From an uncultured Nitrospirota bacterium (GTDB lineage Bacteria; Nitrospirota; Nitrospiria; SBBL01; CAZSHZ01): DNA of 58,231 nt. Shown piece after piece: positions 11,981 to 46,986 of this stretch. Below the pieces are notes generated by a model. That model was given only the letters and a program-made list of their open reading frames with translations. It did no database searches and was not told where the DNA came from. Position 1 is the first letter of the stretch. Every line of letters begins with the position of its first letter. The stretch covers positions 1 to 58,231 of the forward strand of contig CAZSHZ010000093.1 of the NCBI GenBank assembly GCA_964606955.1, read 5' to 3'. Position numbers and translations under genes: made by a program.

Positions 11981-12895
11981 TCAGGCTCTCGCTTGCGCCT
12001 TTCTCTTATCTGATTTCATCAATAAAAGCAATGGGCTGGCGATATACCATGAGGAATAAGTCCCGACGATAATCCCAAGGAGAAGGGCAAGCGAAAAATC
12101 GTGGATCGTCTCCCCGCCGAACAGATAGAGGGCGATGACCGCCAGCAGCGTGGTCAGCGAGGTGTTCAATGTCCGCGAAAGGACCTGGTTGATGCTGGCG
12201 TTGATCGCCTCCTCCAGCGACTCTCTCCTTTTAGTCCGCAGGTTTTCCCGGATCCGGTCAAAGACCACCACCGTGTCTGTCAGAGAATAGCCGGCGATCG
12301 TCAAAAGGGCCGTGACGAGAAGGAGCGTGACCTCCTTATTCATCAGAAAGAAGAGGCCGAGGACCGCCAGGACGTCGTGAACGGTAGCGGTCACCGCGGC
12401 AAGACCGAAACGAAAGTCGAAACGGACGGCGATGTAGAGGATGATTCCGATCAGGGAGAGGAAGATCGCCACTGTGGCGTCCTTCCGCAATTTCTGGCCG
12501 ATCATCGGCCCAATCTCGGTTGCGCTCTCGACGACGAAGCGGTTGTCGGGGACCGCCTCCATGAGCGCCACGACGATCCGGTCCGGAGTCCCCTCCCCCA
12601 CCTCCTGCTTGCGCAGGCGGACCAAAAACCTGTCCCCCCCGGTGAACTCCTGGATCTCCGCGTCGGAAAACCCCTTGGCGCCGAGCGCCTCCCGCACGCG
12701 CTCGATCAGAAGGGGCTTGTCGAGTTTCAATTGCAGGGCCATCCCTCCGGAGAAATCGATCCCGAGATTCGCCCGGCCGCGATAGATCTGCACCACGGCG
12801 GCCAGGCCGATCAGGACCAGAATCGTCGAGAAGACGAAGAAATATCTCCGCTTTCCGATAAAATCGAAACGGGTATCTTTGAAGATCTCGATCAA
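11981..12895 (-). CDS. secF: protein translocase subunit SecF
   Basis: Typical SecF pattern (GIDFSGG, six TM segments). 4-nt overlap with secD. Confidence 0.9.
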   Translation of the reverse strand: MIEIFKDTRFDFIGKRRYFFVFSTILVLIGLAAVVQIYRGRANLGIDFSGGMALQLKLDKPLLIERVREALGAKGFSDAEIQEFTGGDRFLVRLRKQEVGEGTPDRIVVALMEAVPDNRFVVESATEIGPMIGQKLRKDATVAIFLSLIGIILYIAVRFDFRFGLAAVTATVHDVLAVLGLFFLMNKEVTLLLVTALLTIAGYSLTDTVVVFDRIRENLRTKRRESLEEAINASINQVLSRTLNTSLTTLLAVIALYLFGGETIHDFSLALLLGIIVGTYSSWYIASPLLLLMKSDKRKAQARA

Positions 12896-14529
12896 ATCGA
12901 CAGCCTCTCGAGGCGCCTCAGATTCACCAGGTCGAAAACCACCTTGGTCCCGATCAGCGACGTAAAAAGATTGATGATCACCCCCAGCGAGAGGGTAACC
13001 GCGAACCCCTTGATCGGGCCGGTCCCAAAGAGGAACAGGACAAAGGCGGTGATCAGGGTGGTCACATGGGAGTCGAAGATCGTGACGAACGCCTTAGAGT
13101 ATCCGGCGTCCACCGCAAGCCGGGGAGGCTTCCCGGATCGCAACTCCTCGCGGATCCGCTCGAAGATGAGGACGTTGGAGTCGACCGACATCCCGATGGT
13201 GAGGATGATCCCGGCGATGCCGGGGAGGGTCAGCGTGGCGTTGAGGGCGGCCAGGGCCCCGATCAGAAGAATCATGTTGAACACCAGCGTGAAGTCCGCG
13301 ATCACTCCGGAGAGACGGTAATAGAAGATCATGAATCCTCCGACCAGCACCGTCCCCACGATCCCCGCTTTCATCCCGTGATCGATCGAGTCGCGCCCGA
13401 GCGAAGGACCGACGGTGACGTTCTGGATGATCTTCACCGGAGCCGGGAGGGCGCCCGCCCGCAGCACGATGGCAAGATCGCTCGCCTCCTCGGTCGTAAA
13501 CGAGCCGCTGATCTGGGCCCGCCCGCCGGAGATCCTGTCCTGAATCACCGGCGCCGAGTAGACCGTGTTGTCCAGAACGATCGCCAGCCGCCGCTTGACG
13601 TTCTCTCCGGTCACCCGCTCAAAGATTTTCGCCCCCGTGGCGTCGAACGTGATGGAGACATAGGACTGGTTGAAATTGTCGAAGGCGACCCGCGCATCCG
13701 AGAGGAGATCCCCGGTCAATGCGGCCTCCTTTTTCACAAGGAGCGGGGTCTTTGTCACGCGCCCGGTCTCCCGATTCACCCTCCGCTCGAAGAGGATCTG
13801 GCCCCCGGCGGGGACTTTCGGCGAGAACTCGTTGAAGACCTTCTCCTCCTCCTCCGGCGGGATCGAGACGGGGAGCTCCCGCCCGACAGGGGACTCCTCA
13901 TCGATCAGTTTGAATTCGAGCAGCGCCGTCTTGCCGATCAACTCGATCGCCCTCTGGGGGTTCTTCACCCCCGGGAGTTGGACCAGAATCTGCTTGGCCC
14001 CCTGCTTTTGAATCAACGGCTCGGCGACGCCGAACTGGTCCACCCGATTCCGGATCGTCTCCAGCGCCTGTGAGGTCGAGGAGTCGAGCACCCGGCTCAC
14101 CTCGCTCTCCTTGGGGGCGAATACGATCTCGCTTTCGGATTCCCGGACCAATCGAAAGGTCGGGAAATTGTCCGAGACGAGCTTCTCCGCGGCGGTCCGG
14201 GTGGAAGCATCGGCGGTCCGGACCCGGATCCCCTCCTCGATGCGATCGACCCCCACGATCCCCGAAACCTTCTTCTCTTCGAGAACCCTCTTCATGGCCG
14301 GTGCCGTCCGATCGATCATCCCTGCGATCGCCTTCTCCCCTTCGACCTCCAGGACCAGATGCATCCCTCCCTGCAGATCGAGCCCGAGGTTGACCCCGCG
14401 GCTCGGGAGGTATCTCTGCCACCATCCCGGCAGACTCGAATAGAGAGGGGTAGAGGGGAGAAAGAAGATAATCGAGAGAAAGACCGTGGCAAGGATCAGA
14501 AGCGCCCGCCGCTGGATCCTCTTTTTCAC
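12892..14529 (-). CDS. secD: protein translocase subunit SecD
   Basis: LGLDLQGG motif, a large periplasmic domain, and a C-terminal six-TM domain resembling SecF. Confidence 0.9.
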   Translation of the reverse strand: MKKRIQRRALLILATVFLSIIFFLPSTPLYSSLPGWWQRYLPSRGVNLGLDLQGGMHLVLEVEGEKAIAGMIDRTAPAMKRVLEEKKVSGIVGVDRIEEGIRVRTADASTRTAAEKLVSDNFPTFRLVRESESEIVFAPKESEVSRVLDSSTSQALETIRNRVDQFGVAEPLIQKQGAKQILVQLPGVKNPQRAIELIGKTALLEFKLIDEESPVGRELPVSIPPEEEEKVFNEFSPKVPAGGQILFERRVNRETGRVTKTPLLVKKEAALTGDLLSDARVAFDNFNQSYVSITFDATGAKIFERVTGENVKRRLAIVLDNTVYSAPVIQDRISGGRAQISGSFTTEEASDLAIVLRAGALPAPVKIIQNVTVGPSLGRDSIDHGMKAGIVGTVLVGGFMIFYYRLSGVIADFTLVFNMILLIGALAALNATLTLPGIAGIILTIGMSVDSNVLIFERIREELRSGKPPRLAVDAGYSKAFVTIFDSHVTTLITAFVLFLFGTGPIKGFAVTLSLGVIINLFTSLIGTKVVFDLVNLRRLERLSI

Positions 14530-14867
14530 TCCTCTTCCCCTTCGCCGACCAGTTCCTCAATGTGACTCCTCCGGAACTTCAGCCGGACACCGTCCACATC
14601 GACCGTAACGGTATTCTTACCGAGGTTGACAACCCGGCCGACGATTCCTCCGCGGGTGAGGACGCGGTCCCCTTTTTTAAGGTCTGCCAGCGTCTCCCGC
14701 CAGCGCCGGCTTTTTTTCTGCTGGGGCAGAATGAGAAGGATATAGAACACGATAAAGATGAGGATAAAAGGAAAGAAAGAGACGATGACCCCCGAAATGC
14801 CACCGGACTGCCCAGATGGGCCGGGAGCCTGCGCCCACGCCGTCGAAATCGCTTCCCACTTCAACAT
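14526..14867 (-). CDS. yajC: preprotein translocase subunit YajC
   Basis: Single TM followed by LKKGDRVLTRGGIVGRV. Canonical tgt-yajC-secD-secF order. Confidence 0.85.
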   Translation of the reverse strand: MLKWEAISTAWAQAPGPSGQSGGISGVIVSFFPFILIFIVFYILLILPQQKKSRRWRETLADLKKGDRVLTRGGIVGRVVNLGKNTVTVDVDGVRLKFRRSHIEELVGEGEEE

Positions 14868-16027
14868 CCGCTCATTCCCTCCTCCCCCCTCTGATCAGAA
14901 CCCTCTCGGGCCGCCCGGAACTCCCTTTGAAATTCCGCCTCGCGTCCGGCCCTAATCGCGGCGCGGATCCCGCGCATCAGCGAGAGATGATAATAGAGAT
15001 TGTGCAGCGTGAGCAACCGGACCGACAACACCTCGCCCGCGCTGTACAGATGACGGAGGTATGCGCGCGAGAACGTCCGGCAGGTCGGACAGCCGCAGAG
15101 CGGATCGATCGGCCGCTTATCCCCCGAGTATGCGGCGTTTTTAATCAGAAGCCTCCCGAAAGAGGTAAACAGAAAACCGTTGCGCGCATGCCGCGTGGGA
15201 ACCACGCAATCGAAAAGATCAATCCCGCCAAACGCCCCGCAGAGAAGCTCTTCCGGCATCCCGACCCCCATCAGATAGCGGGGACGTCCGACTGGGAGGT
15301 GCGGTAACACCGCCTCCAGCATCTCGCGCCTCTGGGCGGGAGGTTCCCCCACCGCAAGACCCCCGATTGCGTATCCATCAAAACCGATCGCCGTGATCTC
15401 CTGGGCCGAGCGCCGGCGCAGGTCGGCATAGAATCCCCCCTGCGCGATCCCATAGAGGAACCGGGCCCCACGCCTCGCCTCAAATCGATCTTTGCATCGT
15501 CGTCCCCAGGCCGCAGTAAGCGAGACCGCCCTCTCGGCGTCTCCCCGTTCGGAGGGATAAGGAAGACAGAGGTCGAGGGCCATCATGATGTCGGAGCCGA
15601 GATTCTCCTGCGCGTCGATCGCGCGCTCGGGCGAGAGGAAGAGGGACGATCCGTCCAGGTGCGAGCGAAAAGAGATCCCGTCGTCGGTTACGTGCACAAG
15701 GGGAGAGAGGGACATCGCCTGAAATCCGCCCGAGTCGGTCAGAATCGCTCCGGGCCAGGCCATGAATTCATGGAGCCCGCCGAGGGCCGCGATCTTCTCG
15801 TCGCCCGGTCGGAGCATCAGGTGATAGGCGTTGGCAAGCACAATCCGGCAGCCGAGCCCCTCCAGATCCGCCGGCGTCATCCCTTTAACGCTCCCCGCCG
15901 TCCCCACCGGGATGAACGCGGGGGTCTCGACGTCGCCGTGAGCCGTGCGAAGCCGTCCGACCCGCGCCCTCCCCGAGCCCCGAGCAAGAATTTCGAAATT
16001 CGCTTCGGCCACCACCTCGCCGTTCAT
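14861..16027 (-). CDS. tgt: tRNA-guanine transglycosylase
   Basis: TPAFIPVGT, LTDSGGFQ and the zinc motif CxCxxC...H (CGCPTCRTFSRAYLRHL). Start set at MNGEVV (16027) because the track extension would overlap argS. Confidence 0.9.
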   Translation of the reverse strand: MNGEVVAEANFEILARGSGRARVGRLRTAHGDVETPAFIPVGTAGSVKGMTPADLEGLGCRIVLANAYHLMLRPGDEKIAALGGLHEFMAWPGAILTDSGGFQAMSLSPLVHVTDDGISFRSHLDGSSLFLSPERAIDAQENLGSDIMMALDLCLPYPSERGDAERAVSLTAAWGRRCKDRFEARRGARFLYGIAQGGFYADLRRRSAQEITAIGFDGYAIGGLAVGEPPAQRREMLEAVLPHLPVGRPRYLMGVGMPEELLCGAFGGIDLFDCVVPTRHARNGFLFTSFGRLLIKNAAYSGDKRPIDPLCGCPTCRTFSRAYLRHLYSAGEVLSVRLLTLHNLYYHLSLMRGIRAAIRAGREAEFQREFRAAREGSDQRGEEGMSGC

Positions 16028-28540: not shown

Positions 28541-30259
28541 ATGGAGCGAAAATACCTCGACACGGACATCCTGATCATCGGAGGGGGAACGGCCGGCTGC
28601 ATGGCCGCCGTTGAGACGAAGGAGCGCTATCCGCAGCTGAAGGTCGCGATCCTGGAGAAGGCGCATATCGACCGCTCCGGTTGCCTGGCCGGGGGGATGA
28701 ACGCGATCAACGCCTATCTGAATCCGGGCGAGACGCCGGAGTCGTTTGCCCGTTACGTCCGGTTCGACTCCTGCGGGTTGATCCGGGAGGACCTGGTCAC
28801 CTCGATGTCCGAGCTTTTTGAATACGCGGTAAAAAAGGTCGAGAAGTGGGGGCTTCCGATCCTCACCGACAAGAACGGGAACTATGTCCCGCGCGGCCGG
28901 TGGAATATCAAGATCAACGGAGAATCGCTCAAGCCGATCCTGGCAAAGGCCGCCCGGGAAGCAGGGGCCGTCGTCCACAACTGGATCGTCGTGACCAATC
29001 TTTTGACAACGGAGTCCGATCCGCGAAGGGTCATCGGAGCGACCGGTTTCTCGATCCGGACCGGGGTCTTTTTCATCGTCCGCGCCAAGGCGACGATCAT
29101 CGCCACCGGCGGCGCCGCCGGGATCTATCGATCCCTCAACGTCTTCGACGCGCAGCATAAGACTTGGTATTGCCCCTACAACACCGGAGCGGGATACGCG
29201 ATGGGGATACGGGCCGGCGCGGAGATGACCTCCTTCGAGATGCGGTACGTCGCCTTGAGAACCAAAGATGTCATCGCCCCGACCGGAACAATCGCGCTTG
29301 GGGTGAATGCCCCACAGATCAATGCAAAGGGGGAAAAGTTCATGCAGACCCGCTACGCCCATCTCGGCGGGGATGCCGCACCCACCCCCTATCGCGCCTA
29401 CGCCCCGATTCAGGAGATCAAGAGCGGGAGAGGACCGGTCTACCTCGACACCCGTGGCATCACCCCCGAGCAGGTCCATAACTTAAAGGGGGCATTTCTC
29501 GACATGTACCCCTCGCAAGTCCTCTACTGGGTCTCCAACGATATCGATCCCTCAAAAGAGCCGGTCGAGGTGCAGACGACCGAACCCTATATCGTCGGTG
29601 GGCATTGCCAGGCAGGCTATTGGGTGGATGGGGAGCGGCGCACAACCCTCCCCGGCCTCTATGCGGCGGGGGATGTGGCCGGCGGCGCGCCGTTCAAGTT
29701 CATCTCCGGCTGCTGGGCGGAGGGGGTCATCGCGGCTCGGGCAGCCGGCCGAGACGTCATCGCTCTGCCGTGGGAGGTGATCGACCCGGGTCAGGTAGAG
29801 ACCGAGGAGAAACGGGTCTTCGCGCCTCTACGCGCCCACGGCAAAATCAGAGGCGGCGTGATCCCCTATGAGATGGAGGTCCGCCTTCAAAAGATCATGG
29901 AGGAGTACGCAGGCGGCGCCTCCAGCTACTATGAGATGAACGAGGAGAGGCTTCTCATCGCCCGGCGCGAACTGGCAAGGCTCCCCGCCCAGACCCCGCA
30001 TCTGATGAGCGATGATCTGCATTCTCTCATGAAGGCGCACGAGATCATCGACCGGATCGACGTCGCGCGCGTGCTGGTGGAGCATCTGATCTATCGAAAA
30101 GAGACCCGCTGGCCCTCGTATCAGACCCGCGTCGATTATCCCCAGCGGGATGATGAGAACTGGTTAAAATTCGTTAATTCCGTCGCAAAAAACGGCGAGA
30201 TCGTGATGATGACGCGCCCCTATGAACAGATGATTGCCGGGGACCGCTACAAACCTTAA
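28541..30259 (+). CDS. aprA: adenylylsulfate (APS) reductase alpha-subunit-like flavoprotein
   Basis: FAD motif DILIIGGGTAGC. ...RSGCLAGGMNAINAYL...YVRFDSCGLIREDLV resembles archaeal/bacterial AprA as I recall it. Followed by an AprB-like ferredoxin and sat. At 572 aa it is shorter than typical AprA. Confidence 0.7.
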   Translation: MERKYLDTDILIIGGGTAGCMAAVETKERYPQLKVAILEKAHIDRSGCLAGGMNAINAYLNPGETPESFARYVRFDSCGLIREDLVTSMSELFEYAVKKVEKWGLPILTDKNGNYVPRGRWNIKINGESLKPILAKAAREAGAVVHNWIVVTNLLTTESDPRRVIGATGFSIRTGVFFIVRAKATIIATGGAAGIYRSLNVFDAQHKTWYCPYNTGAGYAMGIRAGAEMTSFEMRYVALRTKDVIAPTGTIALGVNAPQINAKGEKFMQTRYAHLGGDAAPTPYRAYAPIQEIKSGRGPVYLDTRGITPEQVHNLKGAFLDMYPSQVLYWVSNDIDPSKEPVEVQTTEPYIVGGHCQAGYWVDGERRTTLPGLYAAGDVAGGAPFKFISGCWAEGVIAARAAGRDVIALPWEVIDPGQVETEEKRVFAPLRAHGKIRGGVIPYEMEVRLQKIMEEYAGGASSYYEMNEERLLIARRELARLPAQTPHLMSDDLHSLMKAHEIIDRIDVARVLVEHLIYRKETRWPSYQTRVDYPQRDDENWLKFVNSVAKNGEIVMMTRPYEQMIAGDRYKP

Positions 30260-30270
30260 GAGGAGGACAG

Positions 30271-30651
30271 ATGCCGGTCTGGGTCGATCCTGAGAAGTGC
30301 AACGGCTGCTACGGCGCGGCCCAACCCCCTTGCCTGCGGATGTGCCCCGGAGATCTGATCGTCAAGGACATGAAGGCCGACAAGGCCTATCTGAAATATC
30401 CGGAGGACTGCTGGGACTGCCTCCCCTGCGTGAAGGCCTGCCCGGAGGAGGCGATTGAGTTTGTCCTCTCCTACCAGATCGGCTTTAGAAACGCCCGGCT
30501 GATTCCGCATGTCGCGAAGGGCCGCGACAAGATTACCTGGGAGTGCCACGACAGCCGCGGGAATATCGAGGAGTTTGTGATTCCGACGAAGATCCTCCCG
30601 ATGGCGCTCGACGAGAAGGTCGAGGGGGCCCCGATCGATTTCTCAATATGA
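30271..30651 (+). CDS. aprB: APS reductase beta-subunit-like 2x[4Fe-4S] ferredoxin
   Basis: Cys spacing C-x2-C-x7-C-x3-CP (CNGCYGAAQPPCLRMCP) and C-x2-C-x2-C-x3-CP (CWDCLPCVKACP) matches the AprB pattern. MPVWVDPEKCNGC start. Confidence 0.7.
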   Translation: MPVWVDPEKCNGCYGAAQPPCLRMCPGDLIVKDMKADKAYLKYPEDCWDCLPCVKACPEEAIEFVLSYQIGFRNARLIPHVAKGRDKITWECHDSRGNIEEFVIPTKILPMALDEKVEGAPIDFSI

Positions 30652-31820
30652 TGGCTTCGATCCCGCACGGAGGAAGGCTGGTCACCCTTTTGGCGGAGCA
30701 GCGGGATCGGGCCGATCTGGCCCGCAAGGCCTCGGGCCTGCCGAGGCTGGTGCTGACGGCCCGCCAGATGTCGGACCTGGAGCTTCTCGTCCACGGGGCG
30801 CTCTCCCCGCTGGAGGGTTTCATGGGGAGCGCCGAGTTCGAATCGGTCCTCTCCGGGATGCGACTCCCCTCCGGGCTGATCTGGTCGATTCCGATTACCC
30901 TGGCGACAAGCCGCGAGACGGCCTCCCAACTCCGCGAAGGGGGGGAGGTCGCCCTTGCCGATCCCTCCGGGAGGCCTGTGGCCCTTCTCGCGTTGGCCGA
31001 AAAATTCCCTCACAAAAAAGAGCCGGAGGCCTTGAGCGTCTACGGGACCGCGGATCCGAAACACCCCGGGGTCGCGTATGTCCTATCGATGCCCCAGATC
31101 CTTTTGGGTGGGAAAGTGATCGCTTTCTCCGATCTCCTTGGGACCGACTTCTCTGAATTCAGGCTGACGCCAAGTGAGACGCGCGGGCTTTTTGAGGAAC
31201 GGGGATGGAAGCGGATCGTCGCCTTCCAGACCCGGAACCCGATTCACCGGGCCCACGAATATATCCAGAAGTGCGCGCTTGAGATCGCCGACGGACTCCT
31301 GGTTCACCCGATCGTCGGGGAGACAAAGGGAGACGACATCTCCGCCGAGGTTCGGATGCGCTGTTACCGCGTCCTCCTCGACAACTATTATCCCAAGGAG
31401 CGCACGTTACTCGCCGTCTTTCCGGCCTCCATGCGGTATGCCGGCCCCCGGGAGGCGATCTTTCACGCCATGATCCGGAAGAACTACGGCTGCACCCACT
31501 TCATCGTCGGCCGCGACCACGCCGGAGTCGGAAACTACTACGGTCCCTTCGACGCCCAGAAGATCTTTCACCGCTTCACCGAACAAGAGCTCGGAATCAC
31601 GCCGCTCTTCTTCGACAACACCTTTTACTGCCGCCGTTGCCTCGGGATGGTATCGGCAAAGACCTGTCCCCACGACGCCACCGAGCATATCGCCCTGTCC
31701 GGGACAAAGGTTCGGGAGATGTTGATCGCGGGGATCGCCCCGCCGCCCGAATTCACCCGTCCCGAGGTCGCCGCGATATTAATTGAGGCGATGCGTGACG
31801 GGACAGGGCCGAAGCCGTGA
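30648..31820 (+). CDS. sat: sulfate adenylyltransferase (ATP sulfurylase)
   Basis: QTRNPIHRAHE and GRDHAGVGNYYGP motifs. Start at the ATGATG overlapping the aprB stop (30648/30651); the track extension upstream lies inside aprB. Confidence 0.9.
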   Translation: MMASIPHGGRLVTLLAEQRDRADLARKASGLPRLVLTARQMSDLELLVHGALSPLEGFMGSAEFESVLSGMRLPSGLIWSIPITLATSRETASQLREGGEVALADPSGRPVALLALAEKFPHKKEPEALSVYGTADPKHPGVAYVLSMPQILLGGKVIAFSDLLGTDFSEFRLTPSETRGLFEERGWKRIVAFQTRNPIHRAHEYIQKCALEIADGLLVHPIVGETKGDDISAEVRMRCYRVLLDNYYPKERTLLAVFPASMRYAGPREAIFHAMIRKNYGCTHFIVGRDHAGVGNYYGPFDAQKIFHRFTEQELGITPLFFDNTFYCRRCLGMVSAKTCPHDATEHIALSGTKVREMLIAGIAPPPEFTRPEVAAILIEAMRDGTGPKP

Positions 31821-31937
31821 CGGGGCGTCTTTACCCCAGGGGTTGACCTTCCAGTCGCTGGAACGCGTATCTCAATATGGAAAAGCTTCCCTTAGGTTGG
31901 GAAGCCCGGGAGCGTTTGGCTCCCTCAGCACAGGAGG

Positions 31938-32594
31938 TTGAACATGAAAAGGGTGATCTGGCTCTCGATAATCCTGATTTTCAGTTTCGGTTGTGTTGCG
32001 TCCCCCGTTACGGCGCAGGAGCACCCGGATCGGAATAAGTTTCACGCCGACGTGGCGCATACGTTACTTGATATGAATACGACGCTCGACATGATCGAGG
32101 CCTTTCGCGCCCAAGAGAAGATGCCTCCCGACCGCGACGCCGTCCATGAGAAGGCTGCACACGGTTTCAAGCACGGGCTGGAGCTCTTCGGGGTCGAGGT
32201 CAAAATGAAGGAGCACGCTGATCGAAACAAGTTCCATGCAGATGTGGCCCATTCGCTTCTGGATATGAATGTTGCCCTGGACCGGATCGAGGGCTTCCGC
32301 GCGCAGGGGACGATGCCACCGGATCGGGATGAGATGCATGAGAAGACGGCCCACGGTTTCAAGCAGGCGCTGGAGCTCTTTGGAGTTCAGTTCACCATGC
32401 CGAAGCATCCCGATCGAAACAGATTCCATGCTGATGTGGCGCACGCGCTCCTGGAGATGAATACCACACTGGACATCATTGAGAGCTTCCGGGCCGAGCA
32501 GAAGATGCCCCCGAACCGGGATGAGATGCATGAGAAGGCGGCCCACGGTTTCAAGCAGGCGCTGGAGCTCTTTGACGTGAAGATCAAAATGTAA
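31938..32594 (+). CDS. secreted His-rich protein built from three tandem 64-aa repeats (unknown family)
   Basis: Signal peptide (VIWLSIILIFSFGCVASPVTA), then three units of HPDRNKFHADVAHxLLDMNxxLDxIExFRAQxxMPPDRDxxHEKxAHGFKxxLELFGV. GGAGG lies before the ATG. Confidence 0.65.
   Translation: MNMKRVIWLSIILIFSFGCVASPVTAQEHPDRNKFHADVAHTLLDMNTTLDMIEAFRAQEKMPPDRDAVHEKAAHGFKHGLELFGVEVKMKEHADRNKFHADVAHSLLDMNVALDRIEGFRAQGTMPPDRDEMHEKTAHGFKQALELFGVQFTMPKHPDRNRFHADVAHALLEMNTTLDIIESFRAEQKMPPNRDEMHEKAAHGFKQALELFDVKIKM
32019..32591 (+). repeat. three tandem ~192-nt coding repeats (32019-32210, 32211-32402, 32403-32591)
   Basis: Repeat period of exactly 64 codons (His29, His93, His157 are equivalent). High identity is visible at both protein and DNA level. 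Confidence 0.85.
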
Positions 32595-32610
32595 GAAAGG
32601 AGGCTTAGGC

Positions 32611-33330
32611 ATGGACACGGGATTCGAGGGGAAGATCGAAGAGGTCTCGCGGCCCCTCTCCGATGGCGACCCGCGGCGTCGCCTTGCAGCCTTGCGGAAA
32701 CTGACCGAGATCGGGATCTGCCTCCCCTGGGAGGAGAGGCCAGTCGTGGTCCGACGGATGGCGGAACTCGTCGGGGACAGGGAGCCCTTTATTCGCTGGA
32801 ATCTCGCCATCTCGCTCGGTATTCTCGGTCATGAAGAGGGGCTCGTGCCGCTCGGAAACCTGGCAACGGATGAGCATGCGAATACCCGCTTTCGGGCCGC
32901 TCTCGCGATCGGGCTGATCGGAGAGGAGCGAGGAATCGAAACCCTGGAATCGATGGTCGGCGATCCCTACGAGATCGGGGGCCATGCGGCAGTCCGCGCC
33001 TTCGTGGCGATCGCCCTGGGAAAACTGGGGAGGGAACGCGGGATTCCTCTCTTAAAGAAGCTCGCCGCCGACGCCGATCCAGTCGTCCGGTGGCATACCG
33101 CCGTGGCCCTGGGAGATATCGGCCATGTGACGGGAGTTCCCGTCCTCTTTAAGTTGGCGGAAGACCCGATCCCCTTTGTCCGCGCCCACGCGGCAATCGC
33201 CCTCTCCCAGATCGGGGACCCAAGCGCGATCCCCTGTCTAGAACGGATCGCGAGCGATCCGGTGCCTAAAGTCGCCAAGATGGCGGAGGAATCCCTCCGG
33301 CTTCTCAAATCTCTAGGTCCAGACAGGTGA
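32611..33330 (+). CDS. HEAT-repeat (PBS-lyase-type) protein
   Basis: Recurrent DPxVRxxAAxALGxIG(D/H) units (for example DPVVRWHTAVALGDIGH, PFVRAHAAIALSQIGD). AGGAGG lies 8 nt upstream of the ATG. Confidence 0.8.
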   Translation: MDTGFEGKIEEVSRPLSDGDPRRRLAALRKLTEIGICLPWEERPVVVRRMAELVGDREPFIRWNLAISLGILGHEEGLVPLGNLATDEHANTRFRAALAIGLIGEERGIETLESMVGDPYEIGGHAAVRAFVAIALGKLGRERGIPLLKKLAADADPVVRWHTAVALGDIGHVTGVPVLFKLAEDPIPFVRAHAAIALSQIGDPSAIPCLERIASDPVPKVAKMAEESLRLLKSLGPDR

Positions 33331-33740
33331 GGATCGGCCAAGCGGGGAGAGAGGTAGGCCTGCATCCCAGGACGATCCGCTATTACGAGGAGATCGGGCT
33401 CCTCAGGCCGAAACGGAGCTTCAGTCCCCACGGGAACGGATATCGAATATACGGCCGAGACGATCTCGAACGCCTCACGTTCATCAAAGAGGCGAGGCTT
33501 CTGGGGTTCTCGCTAGCCGAGGTCAAAACCGCGCTCCAATCGATAGACGAGGGCTGCTGCGAAGCCGCGCGTCCGCTCATGACCCGCCTCCTGGAAGAGA
33601 AACTCCCCGAGATCGACAGGCGGGTTCAAAACCTCCAGGGGCTTCGCCGTCGGCTCCTCCGGCTGAAGGAGCAGGTCGCCTCAAGGCGACAAACCGTTGC
33701 CACTCCCTCTTGCAAAGGAGTCACCAATTGCGCCTTCTAG
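33327..33740 (+). CDS. MerR-family transcriptional regulator with C-terminal cysteines (metal-sensor-like)
   Basis: IGQAGREVGLHPRTIRYYEEIGLL HTH, a coiled-coil segment, Cys-Cys at DEGCCEA and the C-terminal SCKGVTNC. GTG start overlaps the previous stop (GTGA). Confidence 0.8.
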   Translation: MRIGQAGREVGLHPRTIRYYEEIGLLRPKRSFSPHGNGYRIYGRDDLERLTFIKEARLLGFSLAEVKTALQSIDEGCCEAARPLMTRLLEEKLPEIDRRVQNLQGLRRRLLRLKEQVASRRQTVATPSCKGVTNCAF

Positions 33741-33750
33741 GCCCCTACGG

Positions 33751-33779
33751 TTGACTGAGCACGCGCTCTTTCTTATAGT
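33751..33779 (+). promoter_or_regulatory. candidate promoter TTGACT-N17-TATAGT with the dyad GAGC-N4-GCTC in the spacer
   Basis: Read directly from the DNA. Lies between the merR-like stop (33740) and the YVTN gene start (33795). Confidence 0.35.
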
Positions 33780-42201: not shown

Positions 42202-45200
42202 ATGCAGATCGCAGCAGCTTATAATTTTCGGAAGGGTTTGCTTATCTTCGCGCTGGTCCTGGCGGTCCCGGCGTGGGCCTTAGGCGCGGATAACGCAGAC
42301 CAAAACATCAACGACATGCACGCCATGCACGGCGGAACCGGCACCGAGGTCTCGCGAGAGAACGCGGGCCCCGCCCTCATGGGGGCCCTGACCAACCGCC
42401 TCGACTCCGAAATCGCGCGCGCAGGCGGCCAGATGGGCGGTTTTACCTCAAGCGGACAGGCGCACGCGATGTCGCAGGGGGTCCCACTTCGGATCTCGAC
42501 TACCGAGGAGTCTGTGACGTCGGGCGGCCGGTGCCCGGACGGGGTCCCCATCAAGAACTTCGATATCTCTGCGATCAACGTCCAGATTACCCTCAACCGC
42601 TTCATGCAGTTTTTCCCCGGCTACCTCTACGCCCTGACCGAGGATCTCCCGAAGGTCCGCGAGGAGGAGAAGAAGAACGCCGAGGCCCGGAAGAGCGCCG
42701 ATGAGTTCCGCGACGCCGGGGTCTCCACCGGACTTCAGGGCGATTTGATCCAGCCGCTGGTCATCCGCGCCGGCGCGGGCGACTGCGTCCGGATCATCCT
42801 CCGCAATCAGACGACGAACGAGGAGCCGGTCAGCATCCATATCCACGGTTCAAGCCTGATCATCCGCGCCACCGGCCAAGCGGCGACGATGATAAACAAG
42901 GACTCTCTCGTCATGCCTGGAAAGAGCCAGGAGTTTGAGTGGTACATCCCCGGAGACCAGCCGGACAACGCGCACCACTTCCACAGCCATGCGGTCCGCG
43001 AGCAGTGGAACCTCGGGATGTTCGGAGCGTTGGTGGTTGAGCCGCGCGGCTCGCGCTATCTCTCCCCCTGGAGCGGAAAAGAGATGAAGAGCGGGTGGAT
43101 GGCGATGATCGAGGACCCGAACGGTCCGGACTTCCGCGAGTTCGCGATCTTCTATATGGAGATCGGGGATGAGGTCGTCCGGATTCTCGACCGCAAGGGC
43201 GAACTCCTTCCGCAGCGGGACCCCATGACCGACACGTATCGGCCCGCCGCGCGCGGCCTCAATTTAAGGAGCGAGAACCATGGGACCCGCCTTACGCTCC
43301 AGAAGGAGAAGCACGGGATCCATGACGAGTCGATGGCCTACGGATCGTACACCTTCGGAGATCCGGCCACGACTGTTCCCCGCTCCTATCTCGGCGATCC
43401 GGTCAAGTTCCGGATGATGGGGGGGGCCGAGATCATCCATTCCCATCATCTTCACGGCGGAAGCGACCGCTGGCCGCGCTCCCCCGAGGCGGTCACGAAG
43501 GCGGAGTTTGACTTTGCCGCCACATCCAGCGGGACCGGACCGGTGAAGTTCCCGCCGATTCGGACCTCCTCCGAGCGGCTGGATGTCCAGGCGATCGGCG
43601 CCGCGGAATCATTTAACGAGGTGATCGAGTGCGGTTCCGGCGGCTGCGCCTACGGCGCCGGAGACTACACCTTCCACTGCCATATTCCTCAGCACTACGT
43701 GACCGGAATGTGGGGCTTCTGGCGGGTCTACACCACCCTTCAGGCGGCGGGCTCGCAGGACGACATCATGCCGGCGCTGGCGGAGCTCCCCGATCGGAAG
43801 GGTAAGATGAAGGAGGCGGTCGATTCCTCCAAACTGGTCGGCACCACAGTGGACTGGTTTGCCGGAAAGAAGTTCAAGATTACGGCGGACAAGACCGACT
43901 GGAGTGCAAATCCCCAGATGGTTTCGATCAAGGATTGGGTGGAGATGCAGCTTCCGGCCCAGGGACTTCCGGGCGGCCAGGAGGACGAGCATAAGCAGAT
44001 CGTCTCTTACGACGCTAGCGTCTATAACTGGAAGTGGGAGAGGAATGTCGCGTTGAACGAGCCCGAGACCAAGCAGGTCTGGGCCAATTATAAATCGCCT
44101 GCCCCGGGGAAACGGCTCCCGATCCGATGGGATTCGGCCACTGGCAAGCCCTCGATTCCGTGGGAGCGACCACACCTGGGTAAGCGCCCCCCATTCTCGC
44201 CCGACCACAATCCGGCCCCGTTCTTTGAGCCGATCCGGCTCAATAAGGATGGGAAACGGACGACCGAGCCGGCCCAGCCCGGGGAAAACGGCCCTTGGAG
44301 CCTCTGCCCCTCGAACGCGCCGCGCAAATACTACACGATCAACGCGATCGGACTTCCGATCACGTTGAAAACGGCGACCGCCAAAACGCCGGCGATCGTC
44401 GATCCGGACGCCCAGATCTTCGTCCTGGAGGAGGAAGAGGCGGCGGTCCGGGTGACACCCGCCAAGCAGGTGCCGCTGGCGATCCGCGCGAACGTCTACG
44501 ACTGCGTGGACGTCGTCTTCAAGAGTAAACTTCCGGACGACAAGCGGGTGGCCAATTCCAGCAAGGTCAACATGCACCCGCACTTCTTCCAGTTCGACAT
44601 CACCGCCACCGACGGGGTGATCATCGGATTCAACTATGAGCAGTCGGTCCGGCCGTTCAACCTGTTGAAGTCGGAAGACCGGGAAGAGACACACCACGGA
44701 ATGCCGATGCCGCAGAATACAACGCTGACAAAGGCGGCCAAGGCAGGGGATCTCTCGATTACGGTCGCCTCGACAGTCCGGCATATCGACGTGAACGAGG
44801 ACAAGTTCGACACCCCGATGTTCCACCCGGGAACTGTGATCGGAATCGGCCTGGACGGAGTCGGAGAATTCGAGGCGAGAAGGATCAAGGAGATCAATGG
44901 GAACAAGGTGATCTTCACCGAACCGCTGATCAACGACCACGCGGCCGGACGGATCGTCAGCGTTGAGTACGTCCGCTACCGCTGGTATCCGGACGTCGAT
45001 CTCGGGATCGTCTTCTGGCATGACCATGTCTTCGGGCTCGACTCCTGGGGACACGGGCTGTTCGGCTCGACGATCGTCGAGCCGCCTCGCTCCACCTATC
45101 ACGATCCAACGACCGGCAAGGAGGTCCGAAGCGGTCTGGTCGTCGATATCCACACCACCGATCCGGTCTCGGCAAAAGTGACAGGGAGTTTCCGGGAGAT

Positions 45201-46986
45201 CGTCATGCGGATCATGGACTCGAATCCGCGGACTGCCGAATTGATTTCGGCCGACAACCCGATGGCTGGGAGGCCATCGGTCGACGGAACCCCATCTGCA
45301 AAGTATCCCGATAAGATCAACAAATCGCCGATGAGCTTTCTCAATGGTGGGGAGGCGACCACCGGGAGCGGACTTGATATGCGGGTGGAGCCGCTCTCGG
45401 TCCGGCTGGCCAACAACCCCGATCCCGCACTCCTCTTCTCCAGCAAGATCCATGGGGATCCGGAGACGGCGCTGGTCCGGGCCTATCTGGGCGACCCGAT
45501 CGTCTTTAGGGTCCTTCAGCCTGCAGCCAACGAGGCGCACACCTGGCATGTGAGCGGCCACTGGTTCCCGGAGGATCGGTACAACGACGACGCCCTTCCG
45601 CGCAACACACTTCGGATCGCGATCGCCGAGCGGATGGACGTGGTGCTCCCGGCGGCGGGAGGACCGCAGCGGATGGCGGGAGACTATCTCTACTACTCCG
45701 GCCGGGCCTCCCACTTCGCGGAGGGGTCATGGGGGCTCATTCGCGTACTGGATAAAATGGACAAGGGCCTGCAGCCTCTGCCGAGCCGTGAAGAGATCCC
45801 GACCTCGGTGAAGGAGCTCTGCCCGGGCGACGCGCCTGTGAAGAACTTCGCGGTCTCGGCCGTCGACCACACCCTGAAGTTCAACCCCGGAATCCCGGAG
45901 GTGATGGAGGTCGATCTTGGACGGAATCTGAAGCTCGGCAACAAGGAGGGGAAGGTTTATCTCCTCGACGATGAGGTCACCCGGGTCAAGAGCGGGATGC
46001 TCTCACCGCACCCGCTGACCCTTCGGGTGAATGTCGGCGACTGCATCAAGATCAAATTGACCAACCGGATGGCGAAGGAGCGGGCCGGTCTACATGCGGA
46101 CGGGCTTGCCTTTGACCCGAAGGATTCGATGGGGATCAACGTCGGAAACAACGGCGGCGACCAGACCGTCGCTCCGGGCCAGAGCCGCCTCTACACGTTC
46201 TATGCGCATCCGGAGCTGGGCGAGAACGCGGCGCTGATCCAGGACTGGGGGAACGTGATCGACAATCCGCGGAACGGCCTGTTCGGGGCGATCATCATCG
46301 GTCCGAGAGGGTCGAAGTATCGCGATCCGGCCGGCGGAGCGGATATTTCGATGCGGAACTCCTGGCAGGCGGATGTGATCGTGGACCGGTCGGTCCCGGG
46401 GAACGAGACCCGGGAGAACTATCGGGACTTCGCCCTGATCTTCCAGGACGAGGACAACCTGATCGGCACCAGCTTTATGCCGTACGCCCAGAAGGTGGCG
46501 GGTTTGACCGGGATCAACTATCGCGCCGAGCCGAAAGACTACTACCTCGACGAGAAGGGGTGCGCGGTCGGTCTGGTCTTCCAGTGCATCTCCGAGAGCA
46601 GCAAGGGGGCCATCAACACGCCGGTTCTGGAAGCGCACGCCGGGGACAAGGTCCTCATCCATGTCTTCGGCGGGTTCATGGAGCAGGTGGGGGTCTTCGC
46701 GCTCGATGGTCACGAATGGCCGGTGGATAATTTTCGAGGGGCGCACCTCCACAGCTCTCTGGAGTTCGGCGGCAGTTCCTATGTCCGTGTCGATCTTCGG
46801 GGCGGCGCCGGCGGACCGCATCAGCTCCCCGGTGACTACATCTATATGAACCATCGGGCGGCCTACATCGACGCCGGTCAGTGGGGGATCTTAAGAGTCC
46901 TCCCGAAGGGGGAGAAGAGAATCCTGGCGCTCAATCCGACCGAGTCGAAAGTCCGGCCGGTCTCTCTTTCGGCGAACGGCCGCTAG
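42202..46986 (+). CDS. giant (1594 aa) secreted multicopper oxidase, internally triplicated
   Basis: Sec-type signal (ALVLAVPAWALG). Complete copper-ligand set in the first ~510 aa: HIHG (42838-42849), HHFHSH (42973-42990), HSHHLHGG (43438-43461) and HCHIPQHYVTGM (43675-43710). Degenerate second and third units follow (WHDH at 45016-45027, HTWHVSGH, and others). Confidence 0.88.
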   Translation: MQIAAAYNFRKGLLIFALVLAVPAWALGADNADQNINDMHAMHGGTGTEVSRENAGPALMGALTNRLDSEIARAGGQMGGFTSSGQAHAMSQGVPLRISTTEESVTSGGRCPDGVPIKNFDISAINVQITLNRFMQFFPGYLYALTEDLPKVREEEKKNAEARKSADEFRDAGVSTGLQGDLIQPLVIRAGAGDCVRIILRNQTTNEEPVSIHIHGSSLIIRATGQAATMINKDSLVMPGKSQEFEWYIPGDQPDNAHHFHSHAVREQWNLGMFGALVVEPRGSRYLSPWSGKEMKSGWMAMIEDPNGPDFREFAIFYMEIGDEVVRILDRKGELLPQRDPMTDTYRPAARGLNLRSENHGTRLTLQKEKHGIHDESMAYGSYTFGDPATTVPRSYLGDPVKFRMMGGAEIIHSHHLHGGSDRWPRSPEAVTKAEFDFAATSSGTGPVKFPPIRTSSERLDVQAIGAAESFNEVIECGSGGCAYGAGDYTFHCHIPQHYVTGMWGFWRVYTTLQAAGSQDDIMPALAELPDRKGKMKEAVDSSKLVGTTVDWFAGKKFKITADKTDWSANPQMVSIKDWVEMQLPAQGLPGGQEDEHKQIVSYDASVYNWKWERNVALNEPETKQVWANYKSPAPGKRLPIRWDSATGKPSIPWERPHLGKRPPFSPDHNPAPFFEPIRLNKDGKRTTEPAQPGENGPWSLCPSNAPRKYYTINAIGLPITLKTATAKTPAIVDPDAQIFVLEEEEAAVRVTPAKQVPLAIRANVYDCVDVVFKSKLPDDKRVANSSKVNMHPHFFQFDITATDGVIIGFNYEQSVRPFNLLKSEDREETHHGMPMPQNTTLTKAAKAGDLSITVASTVRHIDVNEDKFDTPMFHPGTVIGIGLDGVGEFEARRIKEINGNKVIFTEPLINDHAAGRIVSVEYVRYRWYPDVDLGIVFWHDHVFGLDSWGHGLFGSTIVEPPRSTYHDPTTGKEVRSGLVVDIHTTDPVSAKVTGSFREIVMRIMDSNPRTAELISADNPMAGRPSVDGTPSAKYPDKINKSPMSFLNGGEATTGSGLDMRVEPLSVRLANNPDPALLFSSKIHGDPETALVRAYLGDPIVFRVLQPAANEAHTWHVSGHWFPEDRYNDDALPRNTLRIAIAERMDVVLPAAGGPQRMAGDYLYYSGRASHFAEGSWGLIRVLDKMDKGLQPLPSREEIPTSVKELCPGDAPVKNFAVSAVDHTLKFNPGIPEVMEVDLGRNLKLGNKEGKVYLLDDEVTRVKSGMLSPHPLTLRVNVGDCIKIKLTNRMAKERAGLHADGLAFDPKDSMGINVGNNGGDQTVAPGQSRLYTFYAHPELGENAALIQDWGNVIDNPRNGLFGAIIIGPRGSKYRDPAGGADISMRNSWQADVIVDRSVPGNETRENYRDFALIFQDEDNLIGTSFMPYAQKVAGLTGINYRAEPKDYYLDEKGCAVGLVFQCISESSKGAINTPVLEAHAGDKVLIHVFGGFMEQVGVFALDGHEWPVDNFRGAHLHSSLEFGGSSYVRVDLRGGAGGPHQLPGDYIYMNHRAAYIDAGQWGILRVLPKGEKRILALNPTESKVRPVSLSANGR

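Follow-up and report, generated by a model that had tools for sequence, protein, structure and literature searches.

A rare three-repeat histidine-rich protein behind a MerR-type promoter in a groundwater Nitrospirota genome: a putative exported metal binder

What could be the role of a small histidine-rich protein that is built of three copies of one helical unit behind an apparent export signal, and that matches no annotated family? This question is raised by a gene on the forward strand of contig CAZSHZ010000093.1 (assembly GCA_964606955.1) from an uncultured Nitrospirota bacterium. The entire 58,231-nt stretch of DNA that was analyzed is called the window here, and individual loci are cited by their L numbers. 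The gene (31944..32594 including the stop codon) encodes 216 aa and is supported by its open reading frame (ORF), by homologues and by purifying selection. In our reading, to which we assign a probability of roughly 0.6, the product is a MerR-induced exported (periplasmic) metal-binding buffer or chaperone, a function that is deduced from genomic context. Metal binding in the periplasm is the best reading because a conserved MerR-type promoter is located upstream of the gene and because a MerR gene is adjacent in each of the nine independent related loci that have usable flanks.

The promoter architecture and its conservation are the strongest evidence on regulation. On the forward strand, a -35 element TTGACC (31843-31848), a 19-nt spacer (31849-31867) and a -10 element TATCTC (31868-31873) compose a MerR-type promoter at 31843..31873, and an inverted-repeat search together with a pattern script identified a perfect dyad operator, TTCCAG-N3-CTGGAA, at 31849-31863 within the spacer. 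TTGACC begins 22 bases beyond the stop codon of the upstream sat gene, which ends at 31820. Promoters of the MerR type have spacers of 19-20 bp, and an over-long spacer with the operator inside it marks the promoters that this family activates. As expected for a 19-nt spacer, a standard sigma-70 scan with spacers of 16-18 nt misses the site. The same MerR box, TTGACCTTCCAG..., stands before the homologues of L003, L005, L006, and L009. When the upstream regions are aligned, the only invariant positions in otherwise unalignable intergenic DNA are the TTGACCTTCCAG block, three bases in the right half-site, two bases at the start of the -10 element, and the Shine-Dalgarno sequence with the ATG. 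In L001, L002, L010, and L020, where merR comes first in the operon with the His-rich gene behind it, promoters with 19-nt spacers and dyads of 5-9 bp are found before merR; L004 is the sole locus whose upstream promoter has no clear assignment. The 1.88-Mb genome that harbors the window has a single exact copy of the box. Two further hits with three mismatches in this genome are ascribed to chance, as one that was examined lies inside rsmH and a reversed-pattern control gave equally many. A second MerR box on the opposite strand (CTGGAAGGTCAAG, the reverse complement of CTTGACCTTCCAG) is found in L005 (~1100-1125), L006 (~1365-1390), and L009 (2600-2616). The genes that it faces are divergent and encode a rubrerythrin-like protein and a protein with the CC motif, an arrangement that points to a bidirectional MerR-controlled region in these islands.

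The gene for the regulator itself (33327..33740, forward strand) encodes a MerR-family protein of 137 aa (MerR_1, E 3.4e-21; MerR-DNA-bind, 3.6e-13). In the window and in nine of nine independent related loci with usable flanks, a MerR gene is found at most two genes away from the His-rich gene. Because one of these nine belongs to a Planctomycetales metagenome-assembled genome (MAG), the His-rich gene and merR appear to travel together. The regulator of the window has Cys76/Cys77 at the start of the dimerization helix and Cys128/Cys134 at the C-terminus, and its best relatives in the PDB are Hg-MerR (4ua1) and CueR (1q05). The NCBIfam models for MerR, CueR, ZntR, and CadR score equally on it, all below their cut-offs. 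Regulators of this set of loci match these metal-sensing models best, followed by SoxR or NmlR. No second metal-type MerR is encoded in the genome of the window; the one other good hit is a Cys-free protein beside an IHF-like gene. Two types of regulator can be distinguished: those of L001, L003, L005, L006, and L009 carry an (E/D)GCC motif, while those of L002, L004, L010, and L020 lack it and end in CC-x-P-x-CGPETCG.

Between the His-rich gene and merR lies a gene for a HEAT-repeat protein of 239 aa without signal peptide (32611..33330, forward strand; HEAT_2, E 4.9e-53). It follows the His-rich gene after a gap of 16 nt with its own AAGGAGG, and its stop codon overlaps merR by 4 nt. Probably, these three genes form one operon, and the HEAT gene is not kept beside homologues of the His-rich gene. 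A preliminary description of the locus had placed the His-rich gene at the head of a cluster with a metal-sensor-like MerR regulator. The regulator two genes downstream, the MerR-type promoter and the nine related loci agree with this, but the longer cluster is probably not one unit. A strong sigma-70-like promoter (TTGACT, 17 nt, TATAGT, 10 of 12 positions) is located at 33751-33779, between merR and a gene for a secreted YVTN beta-propeller, and suggests that the downstream genes (for the propeller, Mrp/NBP35, a PCP_red protein and a haem-oxygenase-like protein) are transcribed separately. A collective function of the seven-gene cluster is not supported, in view of this promoter and because only MerR is kept beside homologues.

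The ORF list opens the frame of the His-rich protein at TTG 31938, which abuts the Shine-Dalgarno sequence; the start is most likely ATG 31944. An AGGAGG (31932..31937, forward strand) lies 6 nt before this ATG, and orthologues open with MKR or MKS, so that ATG 31944 is almost certainly the true start; GGAGG precedes the ATG in five of five aligned loci. Residues 1-24 (MKRVIWLSIILIFSFGCVASPVTA, 31944..32015, forward strand) were called by eye, with the -3/-1 rule, as a signal peptide with a presumed signal peptidase I cleavage site, VTA|QE. The layout is MKR, a hydrophobic run and then VTA|QE, and orthologues have equivalent AQA|QE or VLA|QE sites. Thus the N-terminus looks like a Sec signal peptide, and the protein would be exported to the periplasm, in line with the earlier view of this ORF as a secreted His-rich protein. 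A lipoprotein reading of the “FGC” in the signal peptide was discarded, as orthologues do not conserve the Cys and have sites of the AxA type. Purifying selection between orthologues shows that the forward-strand gene is real: the proportion of nonsynonymous differences (pN) is 0.11-0.38 vs. 0.58-0.81 for synonymous ones (pS) in orthologue pairs, and the corresponding rate ratio, dN/dS, is at most 0.2 in all pairs with computable dS except one (0.33). An antisense ORF at 32064-32810 (248 aa) is regarded as a by-product of GC-rich repeats, since selection and homologues favor the forward strand.

After the signal peptide, the protein consists of exactly three 64-aa units: residues 26-89 (32019..32210), 90-153 (32211..32402), and 154-216 (32403..32591), all on the forward strand. 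Each unit is predicted to be a helical hairpin, with helices at residues 30-56 and 64-81 in unit 1, 94-119 and 128-145 in unit 2, and 158-184 and 192-209 in unit 3. Tandem Repeats Finder reports a period of 192, 2.9 copies, 77% matches and a score of 622. Of the 16 His in the mature chain, which is free of Cys, six are in unit 1 and five each in units 2 and 3. The number of units had been given correctly in the preliminary description, although “near-identical” was too strong for units that share 71-75% identity as protein (75-79% as DNA). The idea that their DNA-level likeness implies recent duplication or concerted evolution does not hold. Between the units of the window, pS is 0.69, 0.74, and 0.42 vs. 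a pN of 0.13-0.15. Because synonymous sites are thus almost saturated while pN is low, the repeats must be old and kept by selection, and the DNA likeness is what protein conservation alone gives. Units 2 and 3 are the only pair that hints at homogenization. Six other genes have the same old-repeat pattern; the gene of L009 combines 92% protein identity between units 1 and 2 with a pS of 0.75. The whole unit is unusually tightly constrained, with pN at 0.04-0.28 against a saturated pS. In a tree of 62 units, grouping is by position within sub-clades and by clade at the deepest split, and this pattern fits one old triplication followed by occasional exchange, or else two that arose independently. 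Natural forms carry one or three units. Two-unit forms are all on short contigs and have chimeric units (e.g., one that starts as unit 2 and ends as unit 3); being short by exactly one period, they result from either unequal crossing-over or assembly collapse.

Conservation was scored over 30 diverse units. The positions H9, H14, L16, L17, L23, M35, P36, H43, A47, and F50 are invariant, and D4, F8, A13, I26, D40, E44, H48, G49, L54, L56, F57, G58, and M63 are conserved in at least 90% of the units. Each unit therefore has as fixed polar positions four His, one or two Met and three acidic residues. The five or six His per unit in fixed positions that had been described earlier are indeed present in the window in the pattern given (6, 5, and 5), but H2 (often Q or K) and H52 vary, so that only four are invariant or nearly so in the family. 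Cleavage after VTA, AQA or VLA, if it occurs as presumed, would leave an X-X-H start (QEH, QDH or EDH) in 16 of the 19 three-unit proteins; this is formally an amino-terminal Cu(II)- and Ni(II)-binding (ATCUN) motif, and an N-terminal Gln may cyclize.

The helical nature of the units, first read by eye, agrees with the structure predictions. AlphaFold2, run for the three-unit protein on an alignment of 19 sequences, gave a mean predicted local distance difference test (pLDDT) score of 88 and a predicted template modeling (pTM) score of 0.81, with 172 residues at 90 or above and the signal-peptide stretch below 50. The six predicted helices form three hairpins with helices of ~27 and ~18 residues. 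For a one-unit relative of 87 aa (L020), the model has a signal-peptide helix and the same hairpin (pLDDT 84.5). The helical bundle of the preliminary description is thus partly supported: three helical hairpins are predicted, but no known bundle fold was matched, as Foldseek searches of the three-unit model against the PDB gave nothing significant (best E 0.26; query-normalized TM-score, TMq, at most 0.27). The best PDB matches of the one-unit model are chains of a designed C3 hairpin homotrimer, HALC3_104 (8d06), with a probability of 0.97-0.99, a target-normalized TM-score (TMt) of 0.70-0.75 and a root-mean-square deviation of 1.7-2.7 Å over 53-58 columns, at E ~0.5. The Foldseek matches of this model, from designed trimers, encapsulated ferritin, iMazG and the CZB domain, are generic hairpins without statistical significance. 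The existence of one- and three-unit forms and the resemblance of the one-unit model to chains of a C3 trimer suggest a pseudo-trimer whose three units are covalently linked in one chain, and that one-unit relatives would form homotrimers. The pTM of 0.81 is also credited to this arrangement, which we infer from the pattern of unit numbers and from fold matches that are not significant. HALC3_104 is an artificial protein with no homology to the His-rich protein and informs on geometry only, not on function; within this limit, it hints at how one-unit proteins might trimerize and why three units are fused here.

The family is very small, previously undescribed and without annotation. Twenty-six proteins were found among 5.8 billion, and an exhaustive hidden Markov model (HMM) search of 1.84 billion representatives returned eight clusters, one of which, a TPR protein at E 1.5e-4, is regarded as spurious. 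Only three loci were found among 185,579 species genomes, in two groundwater Nitrospirae MAGs and one Planctomycetales MAG. As to the metagenomic distribution of the repeat, a Joint Genome Institute (JGI) metagenome scan gave three loci. Members are mostly from groundwater Nitrospirota MAGs. The genome of the window has a single copy of the gene, and the 40 related genomes searched have none. In the one-unit homologue of the Planctomycetales MAG (L010, ~1480-1745), an in-frame stop interrupts the signal peptide (…LAVALLV*LVIG…), which makes it a pseudogene or reflects a sequencing error. That the family is not a recognized one, as had been stated at the outset, was borne out by all comparisons: neither the Pfam, NCBIfam and PDB sequence searches, profile searches among them, nor Foldseek provided a significant match to a characterized family. 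With the protein and all 19 three-unit members, Pfam and NCBIfam yielded only sub-threshold helical noise (IQ_SEC7_PH, MIT, SpoVG, etc.), and neither the protein nor a profile of 30 units retrieved a PDB sequence below E = 0.1. Homologues are named either “hypothetical protein” or, spuriously, “SpoVG” in public records. The label “DNA-binding cell septation regulator SpoVG” of the JGI homologue P0002 is a mis-annotation; PF04026 is sub-threshold in three of 19 members, with a best E of 0.033.

How such a protein would work as the main output of a MerR-type metal-stress switch can be outlined as follows. The cytoplasmic MerR sensor encoded two genes downstream would bind metal through its cysteines and then activate the sub-optimally spaced 19-nt promoter, giving a transcript of the His-rich gene, the HEAT gene and merR. 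The pre-protein would be exported by Sec and cleaved after VTA, and the mature protein would fold into three hairpins packed on each other, probably as a single-chain pseudo-trimer. In each unit, His9, His14, His43, and His48, together with Met35, usually Met63, and Asp4, Asp40, and Glu44, could provide several metal sites, which would sequester metal ions in the periplasm or hand them on. A far more specific proposal is an undescribed class of periplasmic metalloprotein, a single-chain pseudo-threefold six-helix bundle in which three identical hairpins provide layered His (and Met) at several stacked or interfacial metal sites, which would be the sole structural output of a self-contained mobile MerR module in Nitrospirota and other phyla and would act in defense by sequestration without a dedicated efflux pump. 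In this full form, the proposal is doubtful.

As to the metal, copper is the single most likely candidate, although on its own it is less likely than not; zinc, cadmium, nickel or Hg-class metals are possible alternatives. On the side of copper, the left half-site ACCTTCC is the one of the CueR box of Escherichia coli copA. Several related islands carry copper-type genes: L001 has a P1B-1 ATPase (CPC, YN, MxxSS) with cupredoxin and DUF2933 genes, L003 has CsoR with DsbD/thioredoxin genes, and in L010 and L020 a CopZ/MerP-like Cys-rich secreted protein is encoded between merR and the His-rich gene. The formal ATCUN start, if cleavage is as presumed, is also listed on this side. Furthermore, combined His and Met ligand sets are typical of periplasmic copper proteins (PMC7558416).

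Several observations weigh against this interpretation or against copper as its metal. In the alignment to its PDB relatives, the regulator has a Cys at the “position 79” site; Cys79 is typical of the divalent-metal sensors (ZntR, MerR and CadR), the residue of CueR being Ser77, and this speaks against Cu(I). The loop cysteines of the regulator lie ~10 residues beyond their positions in MerR proteins of solved structure, and its NCBIfam scores favor no one metal. The only P1B ATPase of the genome (G000:C96 ~12711-15254; L025 2212-4755, reverse strand) is of the Cu(I) type, with two N-terminal CxxC HMA domains, CPC, YN and MALSS. No MerR box was found upstream of this ATPase gene, which is not obviously co-regulated. 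Rubrerythrin-like, glutathione-reductase-like flavoprotein and DsbD/thioredoxin neighbors would also fit a redox or thiol-stress regulon. In the His-rich protein itself, H9/H14 and H43/H48 are spaced i, i+5 and not as the classical same-face i, i+4 pair, and every Foldseek match is statistically insignificant.

The redox and thiol genes just mentioned lead to one of the rival explanations, in which the signal for the regulator is redox or thiol stress and the protein acts in the periplasm as part of an oxidative-stress response, with another role for its His. The CC pair and the Cys-rich tails of the regulators could form disulfides, and the rubrerythrin-like, glutathione-reductase-like and DsbD/thioredoxin genes are indeed found in related islands. 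However, SoxR and NmlR come only after the metal-sensing MerR models in the scores of the regulators, and the same islands harbor CopZ/MerP-like, HMA, Cu-ATPase and CsoR genes, so this explanation appears very improbable. The stress-related context could also be that of an envelope-stress chaperone or adaptor like Spy, CpxP or ZraP, with His used for partner binding or pH sensing. Such proteins are likewise exported, stress-regulated and composed of helical hairpins, as is predicted here, and thiol/redox genes occur in some of the neighborhoods. This role is nevertheless unlikely, given that the 19 members have no LTXXQ or Metal_resist hit in Pfam at E up to 10, that the PDB searches by sequence and by fold did not retrieve Spy, CpxP or ZraP, and that invariance is concentrated on His, Met, Asp and Glu.

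The neighborhood in the window offers two more explanations. Haem had been named beside metal in the preliminary description, and a b562-like redox protein that binds haem or another tetrapyrrole through His/Met axial ligands could be tied to the HEAT_PBS, PCP_red and haem-oxygenase-like genes, whose Pfam names have a tetrapyrrole flavor; conserved His and Met do occur on helices beside small residues (Ala10, Ala13, Ala46, Ala47, and Gly49). Those neighbors are absent at every other locus, where only MerR is kept, and the sigma-70-like promoter after merR is a separate one. The protein has no CxxCH motif and no fold match to cytochrome b562 or c'. While the metal half of the earlier proposal remains the best reading from context, the haem half is thus the weaker one, and a haem protein seems a remote prospect here. 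Alternatively, the protein would be a metallochaperone for supply, holding Cu (or Mn) in the periplasm for a client such as an MnxG-type multicopper oxidase 10 kb downstream; this is a variant of the metal-binding reading in which the physiological role is not detoxification. A 1594-aa multicopper oxidase (ORF 42202-46986) and a Zn/Mn-type ATP-binding cassette (ABC) importer are encoded in the window, and CueP, a MerR-induced periplasmic copper protein, can also donate copper (PMC7558416). But the oxidase is not kept beside homologues, the His-rich gene is absent from all 40 related genomes searched, and activation by MerR is typical of responses to excess metal and not of supply; we regard a supply role as unlikely.

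PcoE and SilE are largely disordered without metal and carry HxxM/MxxH motifs. Like the His-rich protein, they are small and exported; their sequences abound in His and Met, metal stress induces them, and a first-line role in sequestering Cu(I)/Ag(I) is attributed to them, PcoE acting as a periplasmic metal sponge (PMC7558416). They differ in their own control by two-component systems (CusRS, PcoRS, SilRS), whereas the His-rich protein is predicted to be firmly folded (pLDDT 88) with a strict 64-aa repeat. Homology to them is not indicated by any NCBIfam family, meaningful Pfam hit or PDB sequence hit. CopM (DUF305) of Synechocystis is an exported or periplasmic, all-helical His/Met protein that binds Cu and Ag and is induced by copper. 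It differs from the present protein as a single four-helix bundle under control of the CopRS two-component system, and DUF305 is not among the Pfam hits of the 19 members at E up to 10. Spy, CpxP and ZraP are similar as exported, stress-induced proteins whose long helical hairpins oligomerize, and ZraP binds zinc; their regulators are CpxAR, BaeSR and ZraSR, and the His-rich protein has neither the LTXXQ motif nor a Pfam hit.

The closest functional parallel is CueP of Salmonella enterica (PDB 4GQZ), a periplasmic copper protein induced by the MerR-family sensor CueR (PMC2919089, PMC7558416). There, a cytoplasmic MerR-family sensor switches on an exported metal-binding protein that buffers metal and can pass it on (PMC2919089, PMC7558416), and the same logic would apply to the window. 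The PDB searches with the His-rich protein revealed no sequence or fold relation between the two. CueP is a mixed alpha/beta dimer with Cys and His, while the His-rich protein is predicted to be all-helical, has a Cys-free mature part and three repeats, and shares what is probably one operon with its regulator. None of the homology tests succeeded, and a firmly folded protein, as predicted here, is unlike the disordered sponges; from these searches and models, we conclude that the protein belongs to none of the families of CueP, PcoE/SilE, Spy/CpxP/ZraP and CopM.

If the metal-buffer reading is true, the His-rich protein would represent a new family, probably with a new fold arrangement, among periplasmic metal buffers and chaperones such as CueP, PcoE/SilE, CopM, ZraP and CusF. 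It comes from the uncultured Nitrospirota of groundwater, and the way in which this group handles metals (Mn/Cu oxidases) currently attracts interest. The compact module of one regulator, one unusual promoter and one exported binder is a potential part for metal-inducible expression or biosorption, and a hairpin that exists both as a one-unit and as a three-unit chain offers a natural example for symmetric metalloprotein design. For a rare family whose function is deduced only from context, this interest is specialist rather than general.

The surroundings of the promoter have some further features. The upstream genes are aprA (572 aa; NF005331, 751 bits), aprB (126 aa) and sat, in the order A-B-sat at 28541-31820. 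No terminator-like site was found between the sat stop codon and the MerR-type promoter, so that read-through into the His-rich gene is possible. In the 70-nt stretch from the -10 box to the Shine-Dalgarno sequence, two stable leader hairpins (GCTTCCC/GGGAAGC and GGGAGC/GCTCCC) are located at 31885..31924 on the forward strand, with a minimum free energy of -28.8 kcal/mol (z = -2.6). They match no Rfam family, are not conserved in the aligned loci and are not a repeated element.

The MerR islands contain other proteins of potential interest. Two more orphan families of apparently secreted, helical His-rich proteins, with motifs such as LHDQLHxMRDxLH and LHxLHHEMR, are encoded at L003 2229-2675 and, on the reverse strand, at L009 1602-2126, L005 2036-2515, L006 2302-2784, and L009 3526-4005; hhalign comparison of the 64-aa unit profile with these two families indicated no relation. 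A Cys-rich motif, CC-x-P-(L/F/A)-C-(G/P)-(P/D)-(E/x)-(T/x)-CG, which no Pfam or NCBIfam model covers, is shared by C-termini of the regulators and N-termini of small separate island proteins. It is found at L001 7420-8010, L002 7069-7503, L003 1366-2175, L004 1074-1986, L005 202-558, L009 2129-2500, L010 612-1100, and L020 1760-2242. In the L004 protein, it is accompanied by a transmembrane helix and an HMA-like periplasmic part.

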